Below are positions 22,884 through 64,000 of a stretch of DNA of 64,000 bases, piece after piece. The DNA comes from Chloroflexota bacterium (lineage in GTDB: Bacteria > Chloroflexota > Limnocylindria > Limnocylindrales > CSP1-4): assembly GCA_045804645.1 (NCBI GenBank), contig JBJMMR010000052.1, positions 39,405-103,404 of the forward strand. The letters run 5' to 3'. Below the pieces are notes generated by a model. The model had not been told where the DNA came from. It was given only the letters and a program-made list of their open reading frames with translations, and made no database searches. The position numbers and the translations under genes are program-made. Position 1 is the stretch's first letter. Each line of letters begins with the position of its first letter.

Positions 22884-22958
22884 TGGCTCCGGCGGTAGGA
22901 TTCGAACCTACGACCAAGCGGTTAACAGCCGCCCGCTCTACCACTGAGCTACGCCGGA
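22884..22958 (-). tRNA. tRNA-Asn (anticodon GTT), CCA encoded
   Basis: Folded by hand. Minus-strand sequence TCCGGCGTAGCTCAGTGGTAGAGCGGGCGGCTGTTAACCGCTTGGTCGTAGGTTCGAATCCTACCGCCGGAGCCA. It has a 7-bp acceptor stem, a D arm GCTC/GAGC, the anticodon loop CTGTTAA and a T arm GTAGG/CCTAC with TTCGAAT. Confidence 0.93.
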
Positions 22959-49834: not shown

Positions 49835-50236
49835 CTAGCCGGTAGCGGAACCCGTCCCCGCGAGAGCGTTCCGAGCCATCACCGGATCACTCGCGACGAA
49901 ACCGACCTCGATGTCGTTGCCTTGCATCCCGAGCAGCAGCACCGATTCGATGTTGACCCCGGCGCTTGCCAGCTGACGCGACGCCTTGGCGAGCGAACCA
50001 GGCTCGTGCCGCAGCGGGATCGACGTGATCTCCTTCTGCTCGAATTTCGCGCCGCTCTCGGCGAGGGCCGCACGTGTCTGCGCGTTGTCGTCGGTCGCGA
50101 TCGCGATCCGGGCGCTCTGGCCGCAGGTCGTGCCGCTGACACTTGTGATGTTGACGCCCTTGGCGGCGATGGCCTCGGTGATGTCCGCGAGCGCACCAGG
50201 CGTATCGGCGAGCTCGACCAGGAAGGCGTGCTGCAT
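49835..50236 (-). CDS. tandem ACT-domain protein
   Basis: Start at the internal ATG (MQHAFLVELADTPGALADITEAIAAKGVNITSV...), preceded by GGAGGAGC. The longer track ORF is an Arg/Pro-rich artefact. Confidence 0.7.
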   Translation of the reverse strand: MQHAFLVELADTPGALADITEAIAAKGVNITSVSGTTCGQSARIAIATDDNAQTRAALAESGAKFEQKEITSIPLRHEPGSLAKASRQLASAGVNIESVLLLGMQGNDIEVGFVASDPVMARNALAGTGSATG

Positions 50237-50349
50237 CTCGACGCTCCTCCACACCTCGGCCCGTCCGAGGACCATAGCGAGCGGCGCCTCGAGGGCGGGT
50301 CGGGAGTCTGTCGATTCTACGCTCGAGGTCCAGGTGGGTCTCGGCGGCC

Positions 50350-50382
50350 GGCGTCGCCTCGGGCGGGCGTCGCCTCGGGCGG
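50350..50382. repeat. 16-bp tandem repeat GGCGTCGCCTCGGGCG x2
   Basis: Read directly. A degenerate third copy lies near 50410-50431. Confidence 0.8.
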
Positions 50383-50466
50383 AAGCCCCTCGTGCCGGAT
50401 GCCCCTTGGGCCGGCGTCGCCTTGCGCGGGCTCCGCCGGGGGAACGCGCTCCGCCGGGAGATCGGT

Positions 50467-50613
50467 CCGCCCGTGTTACTTCACGTGTTACGACTGACAC
50501 CGGAACCAGCCCAGGTCGGGACCTTGGCCCGCATCCGTAACAAGTGATGTACCAAACGGCGGTCGAGGGCGATTTCCTTCGTCAGTCGTAACAAGTGATG
50601 TACCAAACGGCGG
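50467..50613 (+). repeat. composite inverted-repeat module 1
   Basis: Contains units A1 (50467-50498, reverse), A2 (50530-50562, forward) and A3 (50581-50613, forward). Unit consensus is GTCAGTCGTAACAnGTGATGTAaCaAACGGCGG. The outer units form about 32-bp terminal inverted repeats. Confidence 0.85.
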
Positions 50614-50696
50614 GCGAAGGAGGCTCTCGGGTGCGGCTAGCGGGCGCGGCTCGGGGAAGCGCTTCCTCGGGTTCCGATCCGCTCGGACCCACCCAA

Positions 50697-50842
50697 CTCG
50701 CCTGTTACATCACGTGTTACGGCTGTCGGCTGAAGCGCCTTTTGGAACCACCTTGGCCGTCACTCGTAACACGACATGTTCCAAACAGCCGAGAAGGTCA
50801 CTCTCCTTCGTCAGTCGTAACAAGTGATGTACCACCGGCGCG
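50697..50842 (+). repeat. composite inverted-repeat module 2
   Basis: Contains units A4 (50697-50727, reverse), A5 (50759-50791, forward) and A6 (50810-50842, forward). Same architecture as module 1. Spacers share GGAACCA...CCTTGGCC and CCTTCGTCAGTCG. Ends 48 bp before the XRE ATG. Confidence 0.85.
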
Positions 50843-50889: not shown

Positions 50890-51546
50890 ATGCCGACCTG
50901 GGACACTCGAGCGCAACGCGGTTCGCAGCGCGGAGACCTCCTGCTGCGCCGACTCGGCGAGGAACTCCTCGGCGCCCGGATGGCAGGCGGTCTGAGCAGT
51001 CGTGCCGTTGCGGCACTCGCCGGGATCTCCCACGTTCAGGTGATCCGGATCGAGCGTGGCCTCGCTCCGCACGTCGATGTCGGACTACTCGCTCGGCTGT
51101 CCGCCGTTCTCGGCCACGAGCTCAGCCTCCGGATCCACCCGGTCGGTCCGCCGGTGCCGGACAAGGCCCACGTCGCGCTCCTCAAACGGTTCGCGGCCCG
51201 ACTCGGGCCCACCATCAGGTGGCAGACCGAGGTTCCGATCCCCCTCCCCGGCGACCTCCGCAGCGCGGACGGCGTGGCGACCGCCGAGGCCGAAGACTTC
51301 GATGCGATCGTCGAAGCTGAGACCCGCCTTCACGATGTCCAGGCAACGGAACGCCGGCTCAGGACGAAGCAACGGGACCTCGGGACGAAACGCGCGATCC
51401 TTCTCGTAGCTGACACGCGCCACAACCGCCGCGTCATCGCCGCAATACCGGACCTCGACCGACAGTTCCCCATCAGCACACGGGCCTGCGTGGCCGCGCT
51501 CAAGGCCGGTCGAGACCCAGGCGCCGACTGCCTCGTCATCCTCTAA
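50890..51546 (+). CDS. XRE-family HTH regulator with an uncharacterised C-terminal domain
   Basis: HTH: LSSRAVAALAGISHVQVIRIERG. The C-terminal half carries D...EAETR and LLVADTRHNR patterns. The start is uncertain: ATG 50890 is preferred, since the upstream GTG/ATG at 50824/50827 lie inside repeat unit A6. Confidence 0.75.
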   Translation: MPTWDTRAQRGSQRGDLLLRRLGEELLGARMAGGLSSRAVAALAGISHVQVIRIERGLAPHVDVGLLARLSAVLGHELSLRIHPVGPPVPDKAHVALLKRFAARLGPTIRWQTEVPIPLPGDLRSADGVATAEAEDFDAIVEAETRLHDVQATERRLRTKQRDLGTKRAILLVADTRHNRRVIAAIPDLDRQFPISTRACVAALKAGRDPGADCLVIL

Positions 51547-53517: not shown

Positions 53518-53556
53518 GGCTATGCTACATAGCTTTCATGGCTAATGTCAATAGCC
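53518..53556. promoter_or_regulatory. two candidate TetR operators
   Basis: GGCTATGCTACATAGCT (53518-53534) and GGCTAATGTCAATAGCC (53540-53556). Both lie in a locally AT-richer divergent intergenic region. Confidence 0.5.
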
Positions 53557-53619
53557 CTAGCCGGCGCGAAACGACAGCAAGACCACCACGCCCAGACGGG
53601 CCGACAACGAGGGAACCAC

Positions 53620-54213
53620 ATGCCGACCCCGCCCAGGACCTCGCTGGAGCAGATCGTCAAAGCAGGTCGCGACATCATCGAAGCCGACGGGATCGACGGA
53701 CTCACCATGCAGTCGATCGCGGCGCGCGTCGGTGTCCGCGCGCCCTCGCTGTACAAGCGGATCCGAAACCGGAACGACCTACTGAGACTTGTGGGGAACG
53801 ATGCCGCGGCGGAGCTGACGCGCAAGCTCGAGGCGGCCGTGGGCGGCGAGGACGCCCGGCAGGACCTCGCAGCGATCGCCAGGGCGTTCCGCCGGTTCGC
53901 GCGCGCAAACCCGGGCGCGTATTCGCTGATCTTCGCGCCACTCCCCGACGATGCTCGCGCCGACGCGGAGTGGAGCATCAAAGCGAGCGCTCCCGTCATC
54001 AACGCGACGGAACGTCTTGCCGGTACGGACGAAGGGCTCGAGGCCGCACGCACCGTGGTTGCGTGGGCCAACGGCTTCATCGCGATGGAGCTCGCCGGGG
54101 CGTTTCGGCTGGGGGGTGATGTCGAGCGAGCATTCGACTACGGCATCGACCGCCTCTCGGCAGCGATCGACGCAAAGGCACCTGAGACGGCCGTGACGCG
54201 CGCCCGGCGCTGA
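53620..54213 (+). CDS. TetR family transcriptional regulator
   Basis: N-terminal HTH: LTMQSIAARVGVRAPSLYKRIRNRNDLL. Confidence 0.85.
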   Translation: MPTPPRTSLEQIVKAGRDIIEADGIDGLTMQSIAARVGVRAPSLYKRIRNRNDLLRLVGNDAAAELTRKLEAAVGGEDARQDLAAIARAFRRFARANPGAYSLIFAPLPDDARADAEWSIKASAPVINATERLAGTDEGLEAARTVVAWANGFIAMELAGAFRLGGDVERAFDYGIDRLSAAIDAKAPETAVTRARR

Positions 54214-54285: not shown

Positions 54286-55578
54286 GTGGACCCAGCCGCC
54301 CAGACGTTCGTCCAGCTCGTCGTCCTCGTCCTTCTCGGGCTGCTTGTCGCGCGCATCGTCACCTCCATCCCCGGTTTGCTCCGCCGCGATCGTCGCCCCG
54401 AGGCGCGCTCGATCCTCGTCGTCGGTGTCGGCGGTGGAGGTAGCAATGCGGTCGACCGGATGGTCGATGTCGGGCTTCCTGGCGTCGGCTTCGTCGCGGT
54501 CAACACCGACGCGCAGGCACTGCGTGAGTCACGCGCCGAGCAACGGGTGCGCATCGGTGACCGCGTCACGCGCGGGCTGGGCTCGGGAGGCGATCCCGAG
54601 ATCGGACGCCGCGCGGCCGACGAGGATGCCGAGCGGATCGCGGCTGCCGTCGCAGGTGCGGATCTCGTCTTCGTCACAGCAGGTCTCGGTGGTGGCACGG
54701 GTTCGGGCGCGGCGCCGACGGTGGCTGCCAAAGCACGCGAAGGCGGCGCGCTGACGATCGGTGTGGTCACCAAGCCGTTCGACTTCGAAGGCACACCCCG
54801 ACGCGATGTCGCCGAAGACGCCGCCGAAGCGTTGCTGGCCGAGGTCGACGCGATGATCACCGTCCCGAATGATCAGGTCGGTCAGGTCATCGACCCCGAT
54901 GCGTCCGCGCTCGAGGCGTTCCGGGTCGTCGACGAGGTTCTGCTCAAGGCGGTCGAGGGCATCGTCGAGCTGTTGACCGCGCCGGGTCTGATCAACCTCG
55001 ACTTCGCCGATATCCGGTCGGTCGTGCAGGGCGCCGGACCGGCACTGATCGGTCTCGGCGAGGGTCGTGGCGACGATCGTGCGGTCATCGCGGCCCGCCA
55101 GGCGGCGTCCAGCCCGCTGCTCGAGTCCAGCATCGAGGGAGCCCGCGGCGTCTTGCTTCAGATCGCGGGACCCGCCGATCTGAGCCTTCGCGAGGTGCGT
55201 GCTGCAGCCGATGTCGTGCGCGCCGTGGCGGATCCGCGAGCGAACGTGATCTTCGGGGCCAGCATCGGCGCCGTGCCGGACGACCAGGTCTACGTCACGC
55301 TCATCGCGACGGGCCTCGACGGTCAACCACGTTCCGGAACCTTCCCGCGTCCGACACCACTCGTCCGCGAAGCTGTCGCCTCGCCGACCGTCGCGACACC
55401 ACCAGCCACGCCACCAGGCGGGACCGAGCCACGCGCCGTGCCGGCGCAGCTCCAGTTCGATCCCGACGAACCCCTCGAACTCCCGACCTTCCTGCGGAAC
55501 CCCCGACCGACGTCGGGCACCGGTCGTCGGCGCGAGCCGCGGAAGACGCCGACGCCGACCGGTTCACGGCGCGGCTGA
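54286..55578 (+). CDS. ftsZ: cell division GTPase FtsZ; the ORF as drawn carries an N-terminal hydrophobic extension
   Basis: Has GVGGGGSNAV, NTDAQAL, the tubulin signature GGGTGSGAAP, VTKPFDFEG, the T7 loop NLDFADIRSVV and the C-terminal peptide DEPLELPTFLRN. The first 30 codons from GTG 54286 encode MDPAAQTFVQLVVLVLLGLLVARIVTSIPGLL. An alternative in-frame TTG lies at 54376. Confidence 0.9.
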   Translation: MDPAAQTFVQLVVLVLLGLLVARIVTSIPGLLRRDRRPEARSILVVGVGGGGSNAVDRMVDVGLPGVGFVAVNTDAQALRESRAEQRVRIGDRVTRGLGSGGDPEIGRRAADEDAERIAAAVAGADLVFVTAGLGGGTGSGAAPTVAAKAREGGALTIGVVTKPFDFEGTPRRDVAEDAAEALLAEVDAMITVPNDQVGQVIDPDASALEAFRVVDEVLLKAVEGIVELLTAPGLINLDFADIRSVVQGAGPALIGLGEGRGDDRAVIAARQAASSPLLESSIEGARGVLLQIAGPADLSLREVRAAADVVRAVADPRANVIFGASIGAVPDDQVYVTLIATGLDGQPRSGTFPRPTPLVREAVASPTVATPPATPPGGTEPRAVPAQLQFDPDEPLELPTFLRNPRPTSGTGRRREPRKTPTPTGSRRG

Positions 55579-58749: not shown

Positions 58750-59963
58750 GAGCGAGGCGGCAACCGCTGCCAGGACCTGCCGCCGTCAGCCATCCATGAC
58801 GGTTGGGTCTGCTCGGGCGGACCATCCGGATCCAGGACGAAGTCCGTGCCATCGAACCGGCTCGTGATGATGAACGTGTCGTCAGGCGACCAGCGGTAAT
58901 ACCAGCCCCATCCGGACGGGTAGGGCTCGCTGATGGGTCTGCACGTGCTGCCATCGACGCCGACGACGCACAGGCCACCCCCATTCGTATCCATCCCCAC
59001 GACGCGGCGTCCGTCGTTCGAGAGCTCGCCATACCCGACCGGGAGCGTATGCGAGGTGCCCGAAGCCTGGTCGACGACTTCGGTGAACGAAGTGTTGTTG
59101 ACGGCGTGGTGGAACGCATATCGGGTGCCATCGGCGGACCAACCCGAGCCCCGCACATTCGAAGTGATCCCGTTCGTGTCGAGGACACCGACCTTGCCGG
59201 TGTCCAGCGAGTACACGGCAAGCTGGTCGTAACCAGCCGTCCCTTGGGTGAACATGAAGGCTCGGCCATCGGGCGGCCGCCAGTAGATCTTGCCATCGCG
59301 GTAATCGATCGGCGGCACGGTGATCGTGCCCGAGACCGTGTCGACGAGGTAGACGGCCATCAACTCCGTTCCGGCGAGCATCGCGATCGTCCGTCCATCT
59401 GGCGACCAGACGATCGAGTCCGGATCGACGTTCGCCACTCCCTCCGTCCCGAGGACCTTCTGGTTCCGCCCGTCGGCGTCCGCGACGACCGCAGTGTCGA
59501 GCTTGCCGTCGCCACGCAGGAAGAAGAGCCGCGTCCCATCGAGCGAGAACTGCGGCGCATGATCGTGTGCGTCTCCGGTGATCACCGGACGGCGGGCGCC
59601 GGTCACCGGATCGACCGTGTAGATGTCGCCTTCCGTGTCATAGGCGACGACTCCATTCGCCGCCGGCCCGAGCATCGGCGCGGGGTTCGACCGACTGCCT
59701 GCGTAGATCAGAGCCGTCGCGGTCAGGAGGACGACCAGGAGCGCAAGCAACCCGATCGTTCGCCAGGGCACGGGGCGCATCGCGCGCCGGCCGGCGGTGA
59801 TCGCTGTCATCGGGAGCCACCTTTCTGGGAAGCTCCAGCGCGGCCGCTGGCTCGTGGCCGCGGTGCGCTGAAGCAGGTCATCACGGAAATCGGGCATCCG
59901 CGGCGAGGCGGCCTCATTCAGCCACGTCGTGATATCCCGCTCGAAGAGGTCGTAGCGGTTCAT
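58746..59963 (-). CDS. single-pass membrane protein with a TolB-like beta-propeller ectodomain; probable anti-sigma partner
   Basis: Has a cytoplasmic N-terminus, a TM (IGLLALLVVLLTATALIYAG) and WD40-like repeats (...VWSPDGR..., ...GWSADGT..., ...RWSPDD...). 4-nt overlap with the ECF sigma gene. Confidence 0.65.
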   Translation of the reverse strand: MNRYDLFERDITTWLNEAASPRMPDFRDDLLQRTAATSQRPRWSFPERWLPMTAITAGRRAMRPVPWRTIGLLALLVVLLTATALIYAGSRSNPAPMLGPAANGVVAYDTEGDIYTVDPVTGARRPVITGDAHDHAPQFSLDGTRLFFLRGDGKLDTAVVADADGRNQKVLGTEGVANVDPDSIVWSPDGRTIAMLAGTELMAVYLVDTVSGTITVPPIDYRDGKIYWRPPDGRAFMFTQGTAGYDQLAVYSLDTGKVGVLDTNGITSNVRGSGWSADGTRYAFHHAVNNTSFTEVVDQASGTSHTLPVGYGELSNDGRRVVGMDTNGGGLCVVGVDGSTCRPISEPYPSGWGWYYRWSPDDTFIITSRFDGTDFVLDPDGPPEQTQPSWMADGGRSWQRLPPRS

Positions 59964-60526
59964 GCGATCACCCCTCGCCCGATAGGGCCGGGCGCGGCTT
60001 CGTCGGCGGCGATCGCCGCCCGAAGGTCTGACATGGCACGGTGAAGGCGCGACTGCGCGGTGCCCTGGGGGATGTCGAGCGTCTCGGCGACCGCCGAGAA
60101 GGGCATCCCCACGAAGTAGTGGAGCACGATGATCGCCCGTTGCTCCGGGCGGATCCGTCGAAAGCCACGTTCGATGAGATCGCGGTCGGCGATGAGCCCG
60201 CTCTCGTCGCCGATGATCGGCGGCGAGATCGGCGAGAGGTCGACTTCGATCGGTCGCCGTCGACGCTTGCGAACGGCGTCGAGGCAGGCGTTGACGGTCA
60301 ATCGATGGAGCCAGGCGTCGAACCGCGCCGGGTCACGTAGTCCGGGCAGATCGCGCCAGGCTCGGATGTACGCATCCTGGACCGCGTCGCGCGCGAGCTC
60401 CGGGTCCCGGACGATCAGGCGGGCGACAGCCTCCAGCCGCGCAAGGGACGCATCGACGAGCGCGGCGAACGCGTCATGATCGCCTCGGCCTGCTCGCTCG
60501 ACGAGTCCTCGCTGGTCCACGGTCAC
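59960..60526 (-). CDS. ECF-type sigma-70 family sigma factor
   Basis: Region 2: DAVQDAYIRAWRDLPGLRDPARFDAWLHRLTVNACLD. Region 4: IIVLHYFVGMPFSAVAETLDIPQGTAQSRLHRA. Confidence 0.9.
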   Translation of the reverse strand: MTVDQRGLVERAGRGDHDAFAALVDASLARLEAVARLIVRDPELARDAVQDAYIRAWRDLPGLRDPARFDAWLHRLTVNACLDAVRKRRRRPIEVDLSPISPPIIGDESGLIADRDLIERGFRRIRPEQRAIIVLHYFVGMPFSAVAETLDIPQGTAQSRLHRAMSDLRAAIAADEAAPGPIGRGVIA

Positions 60527-63038: not shown

Positions 63039-63103
63039 GAGCGACTTCCATCTAGCGGGACTTCGAGAACGCGAATCTCCCGAGCGCGCGACATCCCCTG
63101 AGT

Positions 63104-63142
63104 GGCCGCGGGTCCGTCCACCCCGCGGTCACTCTTTTTCTT
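63104..63142 (+). terminator. intrinsic terminator (9-bp GC stem, 9-nt loop, T-tract ACTCTTTTTCTT)
   Basis: GGCCGCGGG-tccgtccac-CCCGCGGTC followed by CTTTTTCTT. Lies 66 nt after the stop at 63038. Confidence 0.7.
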
Positions 63143-63218
63143 GCGGCGATCGTTCATGCCGGCGCCGCCCGTTGGAGGCCGCGTTGCGGCTGCCGCTGAC
63201 CGGCCCGTACGCGGCAGA

Positions 63219-63365
63219 CCGCTGCCTTGTTACATCACATGTTCCGACTGACGGCCGAAACCGATCTCTGGCGCCGTTTGTAACCTCACGCGTTCCATAC
63301 GAGGGCCAAGGTGCCCATCAACCTTCGTTCCGACGTCAGTTGGAACACGTCATGTACCAGGCGGG
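63219..63365 (+). repeat. composite inverted-repeat module 3
   Basis: Contains units B1 (63219-63252, reverse), B2 (63270-63303, reverse) and B3 (63336-63365, forward). It belongs to the same unit family as modules 1 and 2. The middle unit plus the adjacent GGCCAAGG is inverted relative to modules 1 and 2. Ends 135 bp before the ECF sigma GTG. Confidence 0.8.
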
Positions 63366-63499
63366 ACCACCCGCCCCGAGTGAGGGACCGCGGCTGACCC
63401 ACGCCCTGGCCGCACTCCAACGAGGAATGAACCCGAACCGCTTGCGCTCCGCCGTAGCGTGTAGGCGACCAGATCGGCCGCCCCCTAAAGGAGCGAAGC

Positions 63500-64000
63500 G
63501 TGCAGGCGGAGCTCGTCGAAAGGGCACGACGCGGGGACCGCGAGGCCTTCAGCGTCCTGGCCGCCGGCGCCGTCGATCGGTTGTACGCCATCGCTCGCCT
63601 CAGCCTCCGCGACACCGAGCTCGCGGAGGATGCGACACAGGACGCGCTGGTCCGGGCCTGGCGAGATCTCCCGACGCTTCGCGACGTCGAACGATTCGAT
63701 GCTTGGCTGTACCGCCTGCTGGTCAGATCCTGCACGGACATCGGTCGTCACCGCCGGCGGTGGCGCGCCGAGGTGACGATCCTGCCGGAGCCCGCTGAGG
63801 CTGATTCGGCCGCGGCGGTCGCGGACCGCGACCTGATCGAACGCGGTCTGCGACGGCTCACCGTCCCGCAGCAGACGATCCTCGTCTTGACCTACTACGT
63901 CGGCCTGTCTCCGAGCGAGACGGCCGATGCCCTCGAAATCCCCGTCGGGACGGCGAAGTCCCGGCTGCACTACGCCATCGAAGCGCTGCGAGCCGCACTG
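63500..64000 (+). CDS. ECF-type sigma factor (paralog of 59960-60526), open at the window end
   Basis: Absent from the ORF track because it has no stop within the window. GTG preceded by AAGGAG. My translation is VQAELVERARRGDREAFSVLAAGAVDRLYAIARLSLRDTELAEDATQDALVRAWRDLPTLRDVERFDAWLYRLLVRSC...QTILVLTYYVGLSPSETADALEIPVGTAKSRLHYAIEALRAAL. Confidence 0.88.
   Translation, partial: MQAELVERARRGDREAFSVLAAGAVDRLYAIARLSLRDTELAEDATQDALVRAWRDLPTLRDVERFDAWLYRLLVRSCTDIGRHRRRWRAEVTILPEPAEADSAAAVADRDLIERGLRRLTVPQQTILVLTYYVGLSPSETADALEIPVGTAKSRLHYAIEALRAAL

Follow-up and report, generated by a model that had tools for sequence, protein, structure and literature searches.

Three-unit palindromic cassettes linked to a gene for an HTH protein with a predicted nuclease-like domain in Limnocylindria-like Chloroflexota

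Introduction

The closest described counterparts of the element reported here are the REP/REPIN-RAYT (TnpA_REP) systems, in which extragenic palindromes are arranged as inverted pairs and a single, vertically inherited gene is flanked by its cognate repeats (PMC3116915, PMC3337134, PMC5581495). A second group of short palindromes, the CGTC-tagged REPs (Di Nocera et al. 2013), has 8-9-bp stems starting with A/T pairs, 4-5-nt loops and a CCA tail; no dedicated transposase is reported for this superfamily, which was not reported from Chloroflexi (PMC3733652). The present analysis concerns a 64-kb stretch of DNA (the window, meaning the whole stretch analysed) that carries three cassettes of about 148 bp, each built from three palindromic units. 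Two of these cassettes lie directly upstream of the partner gene, which encodes a protein with an XRE-type helix-turn-helix (HTH) domain and a predicted nuclease-like C-terminal domain. From sequence comparison, and with moderate confidence, the modules are best explained as a dispersed, REP/REPIN-like composite extragenic DNA repeat, the units of which would be recognition sites of this cognate HTH/PD-(D/E)xK-like protein. The cassette would then be an undescribed relative of the bacterial REP/MITE-type repeats (MITE, miniature inverted-repeat transposable element), specific to Limnocylindria-like Chloroflexota. The Limnocylindria are abundant, uncultured Chloroflexota of soil and freshwater, and to our knowledge their genetics is almost uncharacterised.

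By analogy, the cassette system appears to work most like the REPIN-RAYT pairs. The units of the family are likewise short, extragenic and palindromic, they occur in inverted pairs and are scattered through intergenic DNA, including the gaps between convergent genes, and the repeat sequence varies among lineages of the partner gene. The system is nevertheless not a REPIN-RAYT pair in the defining sense, which calls for an HUH/Y1 transposase as the enzyme. A Y1 transposase was not seen, and the partner here combines an XRE-type HTH with a PD-(D/E)xK-like fold. The repeats differ as well. Three units stand at fixed spacing instead of in a REP doublet, the copy number has so far been low, and arms of 5 bp surround 7-8 bp, in contrast to the G+C-rich stems and short loops of REPs.

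MITEs with internal protein-binding sites are also well known, for example the Correia elements of Neisseria and the enterobacterial BIME/ERIC. The cassettes resemble them in length (~150 bp), terminal inverted repeats, intergenic location, within-genome similarity and a potential to affect neighbouring genes, but they lack a target-site duplication and a parent insertion sequence and are linked to one host gene. The tripartite operators of XRE-type regulators (lambda OR1-3, phi11 and the C-boxes of C-proteins) are similar in having 17-bp near-palindromes, three per array, in the gap between divergent genes and ahead of the gene for the regulator itself. However, the sites of the cassette are 51-73 bp apart rather than adjacent, and its arrays are copied as a whole, with their spacers, to sites that lack a promoter. 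XRE repressors have a CI-type C-terminal domain or none, whereas the protein encoded here has a nuclease-like one.

Results

Nine units form three cassettes in the window

Nine units of ~34 bp were found in the 64-kb window, arranged as three modules of ~148 bp (50466-50613, 50695-50842 and 63220-63367). Six of them occupy the 653-bp gap between the ACT-domain gene (49835-50236, minus) and the ATG of the partner gene at 50890, where an initial annotation of the same DNA had placed six copies of one unit; they were recovered at those positions and far above chance. The units, numbered U1 to U3, were as follows.

50466-50499, minus strand: module 1 U1 (outer, reverse); core GTAACACGTGAAGTAAC on the minus strand; position weight matrix (PWM) score 42.7; regular-expression match at 50475-50491
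50529-50562, plus strand: module 1 U2 (inner, forward); core GTAACAAGTGATGTACC; PWM score 41.2; 63 bp from U1
50580-50613, plus strand: module 1 U3 (outer, forward); CGTCAGTC-GTAACAAGTGATGTACC-AAACGGCGG; PWM score 52.2; 51 bp from U2; pairs with U1 as an inverted repeat
50695-50728, minus strand: module 2 U1 (reverse); PWM score 37.0; 229 bp past module 1 U1
50758-50791, plus strand: module 2 U2 (forward); core GTAACACGACATGTTCC; PWM score 42.0
50809-50842, plus strand: module 2 U3 (forward); PWM score 42.5; the unit closest to the HTH-nuclease gene, core end 56 nt before the ATG
63220-63253, minus strand: module 3 U3-type unit (reverse); GGAACATGTGATGTAAC on the minus strand; PWM score 40.9
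63271-63304, minus strand: module 3 U2-type unit (reverse, diverged); PWM score 32.4; 51 bp from the preceding unit
63334-63367, plus strand: module 3 U1-type unit (forward); CACGTCAT centre; PWM score 40.6; ~130 bp upstream of the ECF sigma factor start

A search of the window for the core GTAACANGTGATGTANCA with up to three mismatches gave 8 matches, against 0.04 expected, and the ninth, diverged copy was added by a position-weight scan with a 34-bp PWM. The pattern GKWAC-N7-GTWMC matched the nine units and nothing else in the 64 kb (0.16 expected). Modules 1 and 2 lie 229 bp from each other and share 80-81% identity over stretches of 85 and 32 nt. Both have the orientation reverse-forward-forward, with start-to-start spacings of 63 and then 51 bp, where the initial annotation had given about 60 and 50 bp; its view of the outer units as terminal inverted repeats also held, these being 31-39 nt long with 77-87% complementarity. 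The third module, noted at about 63219-63365, was present, but its orientation is not that of modules 1 and 2. It is their mirror image, reverse-reverse-forward with spacings of 51 and then 63 bp. The two direct "GTAACA half-sites 12 bp apart" described earlier turned out to be the two arms of one imperfect inverted repeat that is perfect in relatives. The idea of a protein-binding site, to which these half-sites belonged, was the best fit among the readings first offered, with the correction that the half-sites are inverted and not direct.

Anatomy of the unit and the cassette

The core of the unit is an imperfect inverted repeat of 17 bp, sometimes 18, of the form GKWAC-N7(8)-GTWMC. In relatives the core is a perfect inverted repeat, for example GGAACATGTGATGTTCC, with arms of 5-6 bp (GGAACA/TGTTCC) around 5-8 nt; the arms in the window are imperfect and degenerate (GTAAC...GTACC and GTAAC...GTAAC). 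Three features orient a unit, namely the asymmetric centre nGTGAt, the head on its 5' side and the 3' tail AAACGGCG. The head is TTCAGCCGTCAGTC-like or TTCAGCC-GTCAGTC-like and begins with CGTC, TGTC or CCTC in the window. The inner unit has a head unlike that of the outer units and is direct with one of them, and U1 stands head-to-head with U2 and U3. Together with their heads, the outer units form terminal inverted repeats of roughly 40 bp, in which 92.5% of the cells were paired among seven cassettes. The complete cassette of three oriented units at fixed spacing measures roughly 146-170 bp, and all copies seen were intergenic. The spacings fell into two classes, 62-63/51 and 72-73/61-62, so that both intervals shift together by 10-11 bp, about one helical turn. 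The arm variants specific to each unit (U1 GTAACA, U2 GTTCCA, U3 GTACCA) were kept alike in the window and in lineage L121.

The heads and the arrangement of the units recall the CGTC-tagged REPs. A CGTC, TGTC or CCTC head located 4 nt before the arm was found in units of the window, L121, L127 and L129 (L129e), the units are head-to-head, and a 3' end containing CCA follows the palindrome. The geometry of stem and loop is unmatched, with arms of 5-6 bp around 5-8 nt in the cassette, and the heads in L126 and L128 are not CGTC (GGTC, CGCC, CTCC). The resemblance is a lead and not a sign of membership.

Other motifs were compared with the unit by inspection and rejected. The sites of response regulators (GlnR, AfsQ1, PhoP) are direct repeats spaced by 11 bp, unlike the inverted arms of the unit. 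The LexA/Cheo and KstR boxes have the form GAAC-N4-GTTC, as against N7. The spacing of sigma-54 promoters (TGGYAC-N5-TTGT) fits, yet the -12 GC is missing and the sites occur in both orientations. An ECF-type promoter inside the units (GGAAC-N15-CGRC) would have the wrong spacing and a palindromic context, and attC sites were dismissed for want of the R'/R'' consensus and of an integron context.

The cassette is retained upstream of the partner gene

The genes on either side of modules 1 and 2 are the following.

50890-51546, plus strand: partner gene; product of 218 amino acids (aa); XRE-type HTH at about residues 20-75; C-terminal domain without annotation at residues 88-218
49835-50236, minus strand: ACT-domain gene (Pfam ACT); divergent neighbour of modules 1 and 2, context only

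The surroundings of the partner gene were compared in nine lineages besides the window. Two to four 5-N7/8-5 units were located directly upstream of the gene in each of the nine, and the gene-proximal unit was 45-105 nt from the ATG across lineages. A triplet of such units stood upstream of the gene in the window, L121, L126, L128, L129, L135 (where four units were present), L136, L138 and L139. Palindromic sites located upstream of their own gene and kept in orthologues, the hallmark of an autoregulatory array, were thus found in ten lineages. The linkage survived changes of the left neighbour, which is an MMPL gene in L128, while L135 has an amylase gene (1495 aa) inserted at this place; in both, the cassette stays by the HTH-nuclease gene and not by the ACT-domain gene. 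A second, slightly decayed cassette was located just downstream of the partner gene in L128.

A distant homologue of the partner protein, P0132, which is 47% identical and is encoded between Fpg and MreB genes in L142-L145, carries a different repeat, TGCAC-N7-GTGCG, on both flanks of its gene. The two clusters in L145 were as follows.

L145 2291-2477 and 3228-3356: P0132-type repeat clusters, either side of the gene

Upstream of the P0132 gene, three direct copies with a 29-bp period were followed by an inverted copy 112 bp further on, and downstream a direct copy and an inverted one were again separated by 112 bp. The first and the last copy are mutually inverted, like the ends of an insertion sequence. 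The sequence of the repeat changes with the protein while its design and place are kept, which is the strongest, still indirect, evidence of recognition by the protein.

The partner protein carries a predicted PD-(D/E)xK-like domain

The product of the partner gene had been described in the initial annotation as an XRE regulator. An XRE-type HTH is present and is all that Pfam detected in the 218-aa protein, but a second, nuclease-like domain is present as well. The AlphaFold (AF2) model of the C-terminal domain has a predicted local distance difference test (pLDDT) score of 92.5 and an alpha-beta-beta-beta-alpha-beta core as in restriction-endonuclease-like proteins. With the full-length model, Foldseek gave mostly HTH matches, the HTH being structurally closest to C.AhdI/C.BclI, ClgR and HipB, and the search was rerun with the C-terminal domain alone. 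Every meaningful match of this domain in PDB then had a PD-(D/E)xK fold (AF1548, the R2 endonuclease domain, OkrAI/BamHI, Bax1, EndoMS, Can2 and XisH-like), with E>=0.01 and a probability of up to 0.97.

The residues invariant among 27 homologues included D127, E142, E144, K160, D163, D175, R177, H178, N179 and R180. Among homologues at 38-62% identity, D127 and E142 were invariant and E144 and K160 were at least 90% conserved, and the conservation of the C-terminal 130 residues as a whole was far higher than expected of a linker or of a tail for mere dimerisation. In the model, D127 marks the beginning of beta2, and beta3 contains E142-x-E144. The acidic residues of BamHI are D94, E111 and E113, and D127...E142-x-E144 may be the equivalent, BamHI-like acidic set. 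By core topology and the conserved acidic and lysine residues, the partner protein is predicted to belong to the PD-(D/E)xK superfamily. The likeness to BamHI/OkrAI comprises the predicted core and the D...ExE residues (D127, E142, E144); in contrast to these enzymes, there is no detectable sequence similarity and no methyltransferase gene nearby, and the specificity of the putative nuclease would come from the fused HTH.

The family is large, with 789 clusters at 50% identity among 1.84 billion representatives. Nearly all members are 216-220 aa long, the domain spanning residues 88-217, and in distant members Pfam again detected the HTH alone. The named sources of homologues were only 'Candidatus Limnocylindrales/Limnocylindria' and Chloroflexota metagenome-assembled genomes (MAGs), the G+C content of the window is 68%, and the window genome is a Limnocylindria-like Chloroflexota. 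An exact look-up of the XRE and HAD proteins of the window, and of P0001, a 98%-identical protein, returned no record.

Dispersed copies of the cassette

Genome pieces of 8-64 kb each were compared. A scan of genome contigs with an 18-nt core gave 120 loci, almost all of them chance matches in low-GC genomes; a re-screen of these loci with the arm pattern showed three of them to be genuine 62/51 triplets, in two other species-level MAGs. The L045 cassette has the 3' end of mfd on one side and an MFS gene on the other, the L048 cassette is located between a class-II aminoacyl-tRNA synthetase (thrS-like) gene and infC, and the L086 cassette between convergent dehydrogenase (ADH) and amidohydrolase genes. 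No XRE, ECF, ACT, NHL or HAD homologue was found within 8 kb of any of the three. Their identity to the window modules was 62-70% over 146 bp, as compared with a mean of 50% and a maximum of 57% for shuffled sequences.

Copies were also found close to one another within a genome. L128 has at least 5 cassettes within 15 kb, of which three are 95-98% identical, spacers too, and two of these three sit between convergent genes; the local density in the window is 2 loci per 64 kb. In L126, the two cassettes share 84% identity with each other and only 65-67% with their positional orthologues in the window, and one of them lies between aminotransferase and NHL genes that are 2 bp apart in the window. 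In the window and in L129/L130, a cassette is located past the NHL gene and before an orthologous (83%) ECF sigma gene, and in L127 a cassette lies beside a paralogous (50%) sigma gene. The gene concerned in the window is the following.

63500-64000, plus strand: ECF sigma factor gene (Pfam Sigma70_r2/r4); downstream of module 3; runs off the window

The window holds two paralogous ECF sigma genes, 55% identical and 3 kb apart (59960-60526, minus; 63500-64000, plus). Only the second has an upstream cassette; the first is divergent from an aminotransferase gene, across a 40-bp gap.

It would be possible to explain the cassettes as operator arrays of a pure transcription-factor regulon, without mobility and with the nuclease-like domain serving for oligomerisation or sensing only. 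This explanation is judged unlikely. In its favour, a cassette precedes the gene of the regulator itself in every case, the copy before the ECF sigma gene is kept in the window and L129/L130 with another by the paralogous sigma gene of L127, the units are palindromic with spacing classes about one helical turn apart, and the HTH resembles C-proteins, ClgR and HipB. However, some cassettes are located between convergent genes (a1/a2 and y of L128, and L086) or inside the thrS-infC unit (L048), where no promoter is expected; the element is a dispersed repeat and not only an operator. In addition, operators need no such identity of the spacers as was found among the L128 copies (95-98%) and the L126 pair (84%), the positions of the cassettes are not strictly orthologous, as the aminotransferase/NHL gap of L126 shows, and the nuclease-like domain has kept its acidic residues without variation.

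The initial annotation had also considered a MITE-like element, and part of this description fits. The cassettes have ~40-bp terminal inverted repeats, they occupy unrelated intergenic sites in other Limnocylindria, and near-identical copies occur in one genome; tandem copies, described below, are present in two lineages. A conventional MITE moved by an unrelated transposase, for which the position at the XRE gene would be incidental or a secondary capture, is nevertheless improbable, more so than the regulon. No consistent target-site duplication was found at any of 14 cassettes (0/14), where only chance words of 4-7 nt occurred at varying offsets. No transposase was found in the gene neighbourhoods examined, whole genomes lying outside that search. 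The intergenic region had no BLAST match among plasmids, viral contigs held no relative of the HTH-nuclease protein, and the copy number is not high. An association with the same gene through 10 lineages, together with the change of repeat sequence with the protein, would be hard to obtain by coincidence. It had been proposed too that copies scattered without relation to gene starts would indicate a plain dispersed repeat. The element is dispersed in that sense, but a conserved partner gene is retained.

The cassette is a DNA element

A second proposal of the initial annotation was a structured cis-regulatory RNA whose hairpins exclude one another, as in an attenuator; it was considered here as a 5' leader, together with the alternative of a small RNA gene. 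The module does fold well, with a minimum free energy of -68.7 kcal/mol (z = -3.98), and four pairs of the outer U1:U3 helix were changed on both sides, with pairing above that of all shuffles. However, a good folding energy is expected of any inverted repeat. The outer helix was 92.5% paired, as against 86% reached already with shuffled columns, and the RNAalifold covariation terms on the two strands were +0.41 and -0.89 kcal/mol. The four doubly changed pairs reflect the same motif positions altered in parallel in both terminal units, and they disrupt the local hairpin of each unit in the window. At the two variable arm positions, each of these units has one or more mismatches that are not compensated. 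Mismatches of the outer helix and of the local hairpins were conserved and not compensated. The orientation of the cassette relative to the same downstream gene flips among orthologues, and copies are found at convergent and intra-operon (thrS-infC) sites, which speaks against an attenuator or RNA switch. Rfam gave no match for the cassette even at E<=10, and a scan found no promoter or terminator signals. The cassette is a DNA element; the RNA-attenuator idea is unsupported, and a structured RNA of any kind is very improbable.

Rearrangements of the cassette

The family evolves by cassette copying, terminal-repeat inversion, tandem duplication and unit loss or gain. The module pair of the window is a lineage-specific 229-bp tandem duplication. 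Only one module is present in the orthologue L121 (81% identical), and the core of module 2 U3 is identical to that of U3 in this single module. An independent tandem duplication in L128 has the same 229-bp period (3494->3723), though the cassette there is 21 bp longer (169 vs 148). The exactly equal period in the window (50466->50695) and in L128 is a coincidence. The contigs L129 and L130 come from different samples and are 99.9% identical over 10 kb, apart by an exact 51-bp deletion. Its junction lies inside a unit core, where two direct units are fused into a hybrid (L129 15405-15472, L130 9214-9230), and the difference is a strain-level polymorphism in unit number.

In the window and L121 the U3 end of the cassette faces the partner gene, whereas in L126, L128, L129 and L135 the cassette is flipped and the U1 end faces the gene. 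An inversion between the terminal repeats yields the exact mirror architecture and so accounts for the flip between lineages. The flipping of the U1-U3 segment, which turns rev-63-fwd-51-fwd exactly into rev-51-rev-63-fwd, and the occurrence of both forms at the same locus in different lineages would also suit a phase-variable inverton, in which a recombinase redirects a promoter; the units resemble recombinase core sites, with inverted arms around an asymmetric centre. However, a single orientation was found in each strain cluster, L121-L125 (5 contigs), L129-L134 (6) and L139-L141 (3), and the flip parts lineages of ~80% from those of ~70% protein identity, for which a single ancient event suffices. 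No invertase gene was found among the neighbours examined and no promoter was identified in the middle segment. An inverton is the least probable of the explanations considered, by a little even below a structured RNA.

Probable recognition of the cassette by the partner protein

The HTH-nuclease protein probably recognises the cassette, as judged from co-location and the one distant homologue in which the repeat co-varies. Several observations weigh against the reading of the units as its recognition sites. The recognition helix (SHTQ.xRIE) is nearly unchanged in P0132 despite the other repeat arms. Arm spacings of N7 and N8 occur inside one array (L128 U2, L129, L138, L139), which is unusual for a rigid dimeric operator. 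A scan for consensus sigma-70 promoters and terminators found none, so that no promoter was placed relative to the units. In the MAGs with L045, L048 and L086, the partner gene was absent from the 8 kb around each cassette. The strict two-unit GGAACA pattern was found in one contig (L127) among 241 million metagenome records, and the copy number therefore seems modest. On the side of the protein, Pfam, NCBIfam, PADLOC and PHROGs gave nothing usable for the C-terminal domain, and the Foldseek E-values are weak (0.01 and above).

With the units as recognition sites in a dispersed repeat, the following mechanism can be proposed. A vertically inherited protein combining an XRE-type HTH with a restriction-endonuclease fold would recognise the units, each palindrome being bound by a protein dimer. 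The cassette before the partner gene would most likely serve autoregulation, and other cassettes would have been seeded into intergenic DNA, including that before the ECF sigma gene, which may thereby have come under the same control. A further, more speculative step would make this a REPIN-RAYT-like partnership of a new enzymatic type, in which the protein recognises the units through its HTH and nicks or cuts them, driving copying, inversion, gain or loss of units and duplication. This step is considered doubtful, about as much so as the pure regulon. If true, the partnership would be a non-HUH, non-DDE route to the upkeep of a dispersed repeat family, and the protein might supply the missing type of "dedicated enzyme" of the CGTC-headed REPs.

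The analysis defines a repeat family with a precise, searchable architecture, a large protein family annotated merely as XRE regulators yet bearing a conserved nuclease-like domain, and a conserved physical coupling between the two. If the protein only binds, the system would be a clean one for studying how the copying of operator cassettes wires new genes, such as that for the ECF sigma factor, to a regulator. Should it cut as well, the protein would represent a new class of repeat-associated enzyme comparable to the RAYTs. The cassettes can also serve as metagenome markers, since the 51-bp deletion parts close strains and the duplications and inversions part distant lineages.

Other features of the window

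On one side of module 3, the NHL-repeat gene ends at 63098-63145 in a G+C-rich hairpin with a T-run behind it (gagtggccgcgggtccgtccaccccgcggtcactcttttt). On the other side, a block at 63420-63499 that is shared with L129 (TGAACC...CCGCCGTAGCGTGTAGGCGACCAG...AAGGAGCGAAGC-GTG) precedes the ECF sigma start and may contain a promoter and a ribosome-binding site belonging to that gene.

A tandem repeat with a 16-nt period, GGCCGGCGTCGCCTCG (4.9 copies, 74% matches), occupies 50346-50422, between module 1 and the promoter region of the ACT-domain gene. Unrelated short tandem repeats were seen beside other cassettes (L126 19570-19630, L129 6070-6120, L138 7260-7345). Upstream of the ACT-domain gene, a leader of ~95 nt (50237-50340, minus) is almost invariant in six lineages. 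It contains a TAGAAT -10-like box (~50311-50316), the blocks CUCCCGACCCGCCCUCGAG and CUCGGACGGGCCG, and a predicted helix in which CUCC pairs with the GGAG of the ribosome-binding site; it had no Rfam match. This leader could be an undescribed cis-regulatory RNA for the ACT-domain gene.

The sole Rfam family found in the window was a tRNA gene (22887-22958, minus; RF00005, 73 bits). Additionally, a TetR-family gene (TetR_C_33; 53545-54213, plus) is located directly upstream of the FtsZ gene (54286-55578, plus); this gene pair is kept in L121, L126, L129 and L139 and recalls the SlmA-type control of FtsZ.

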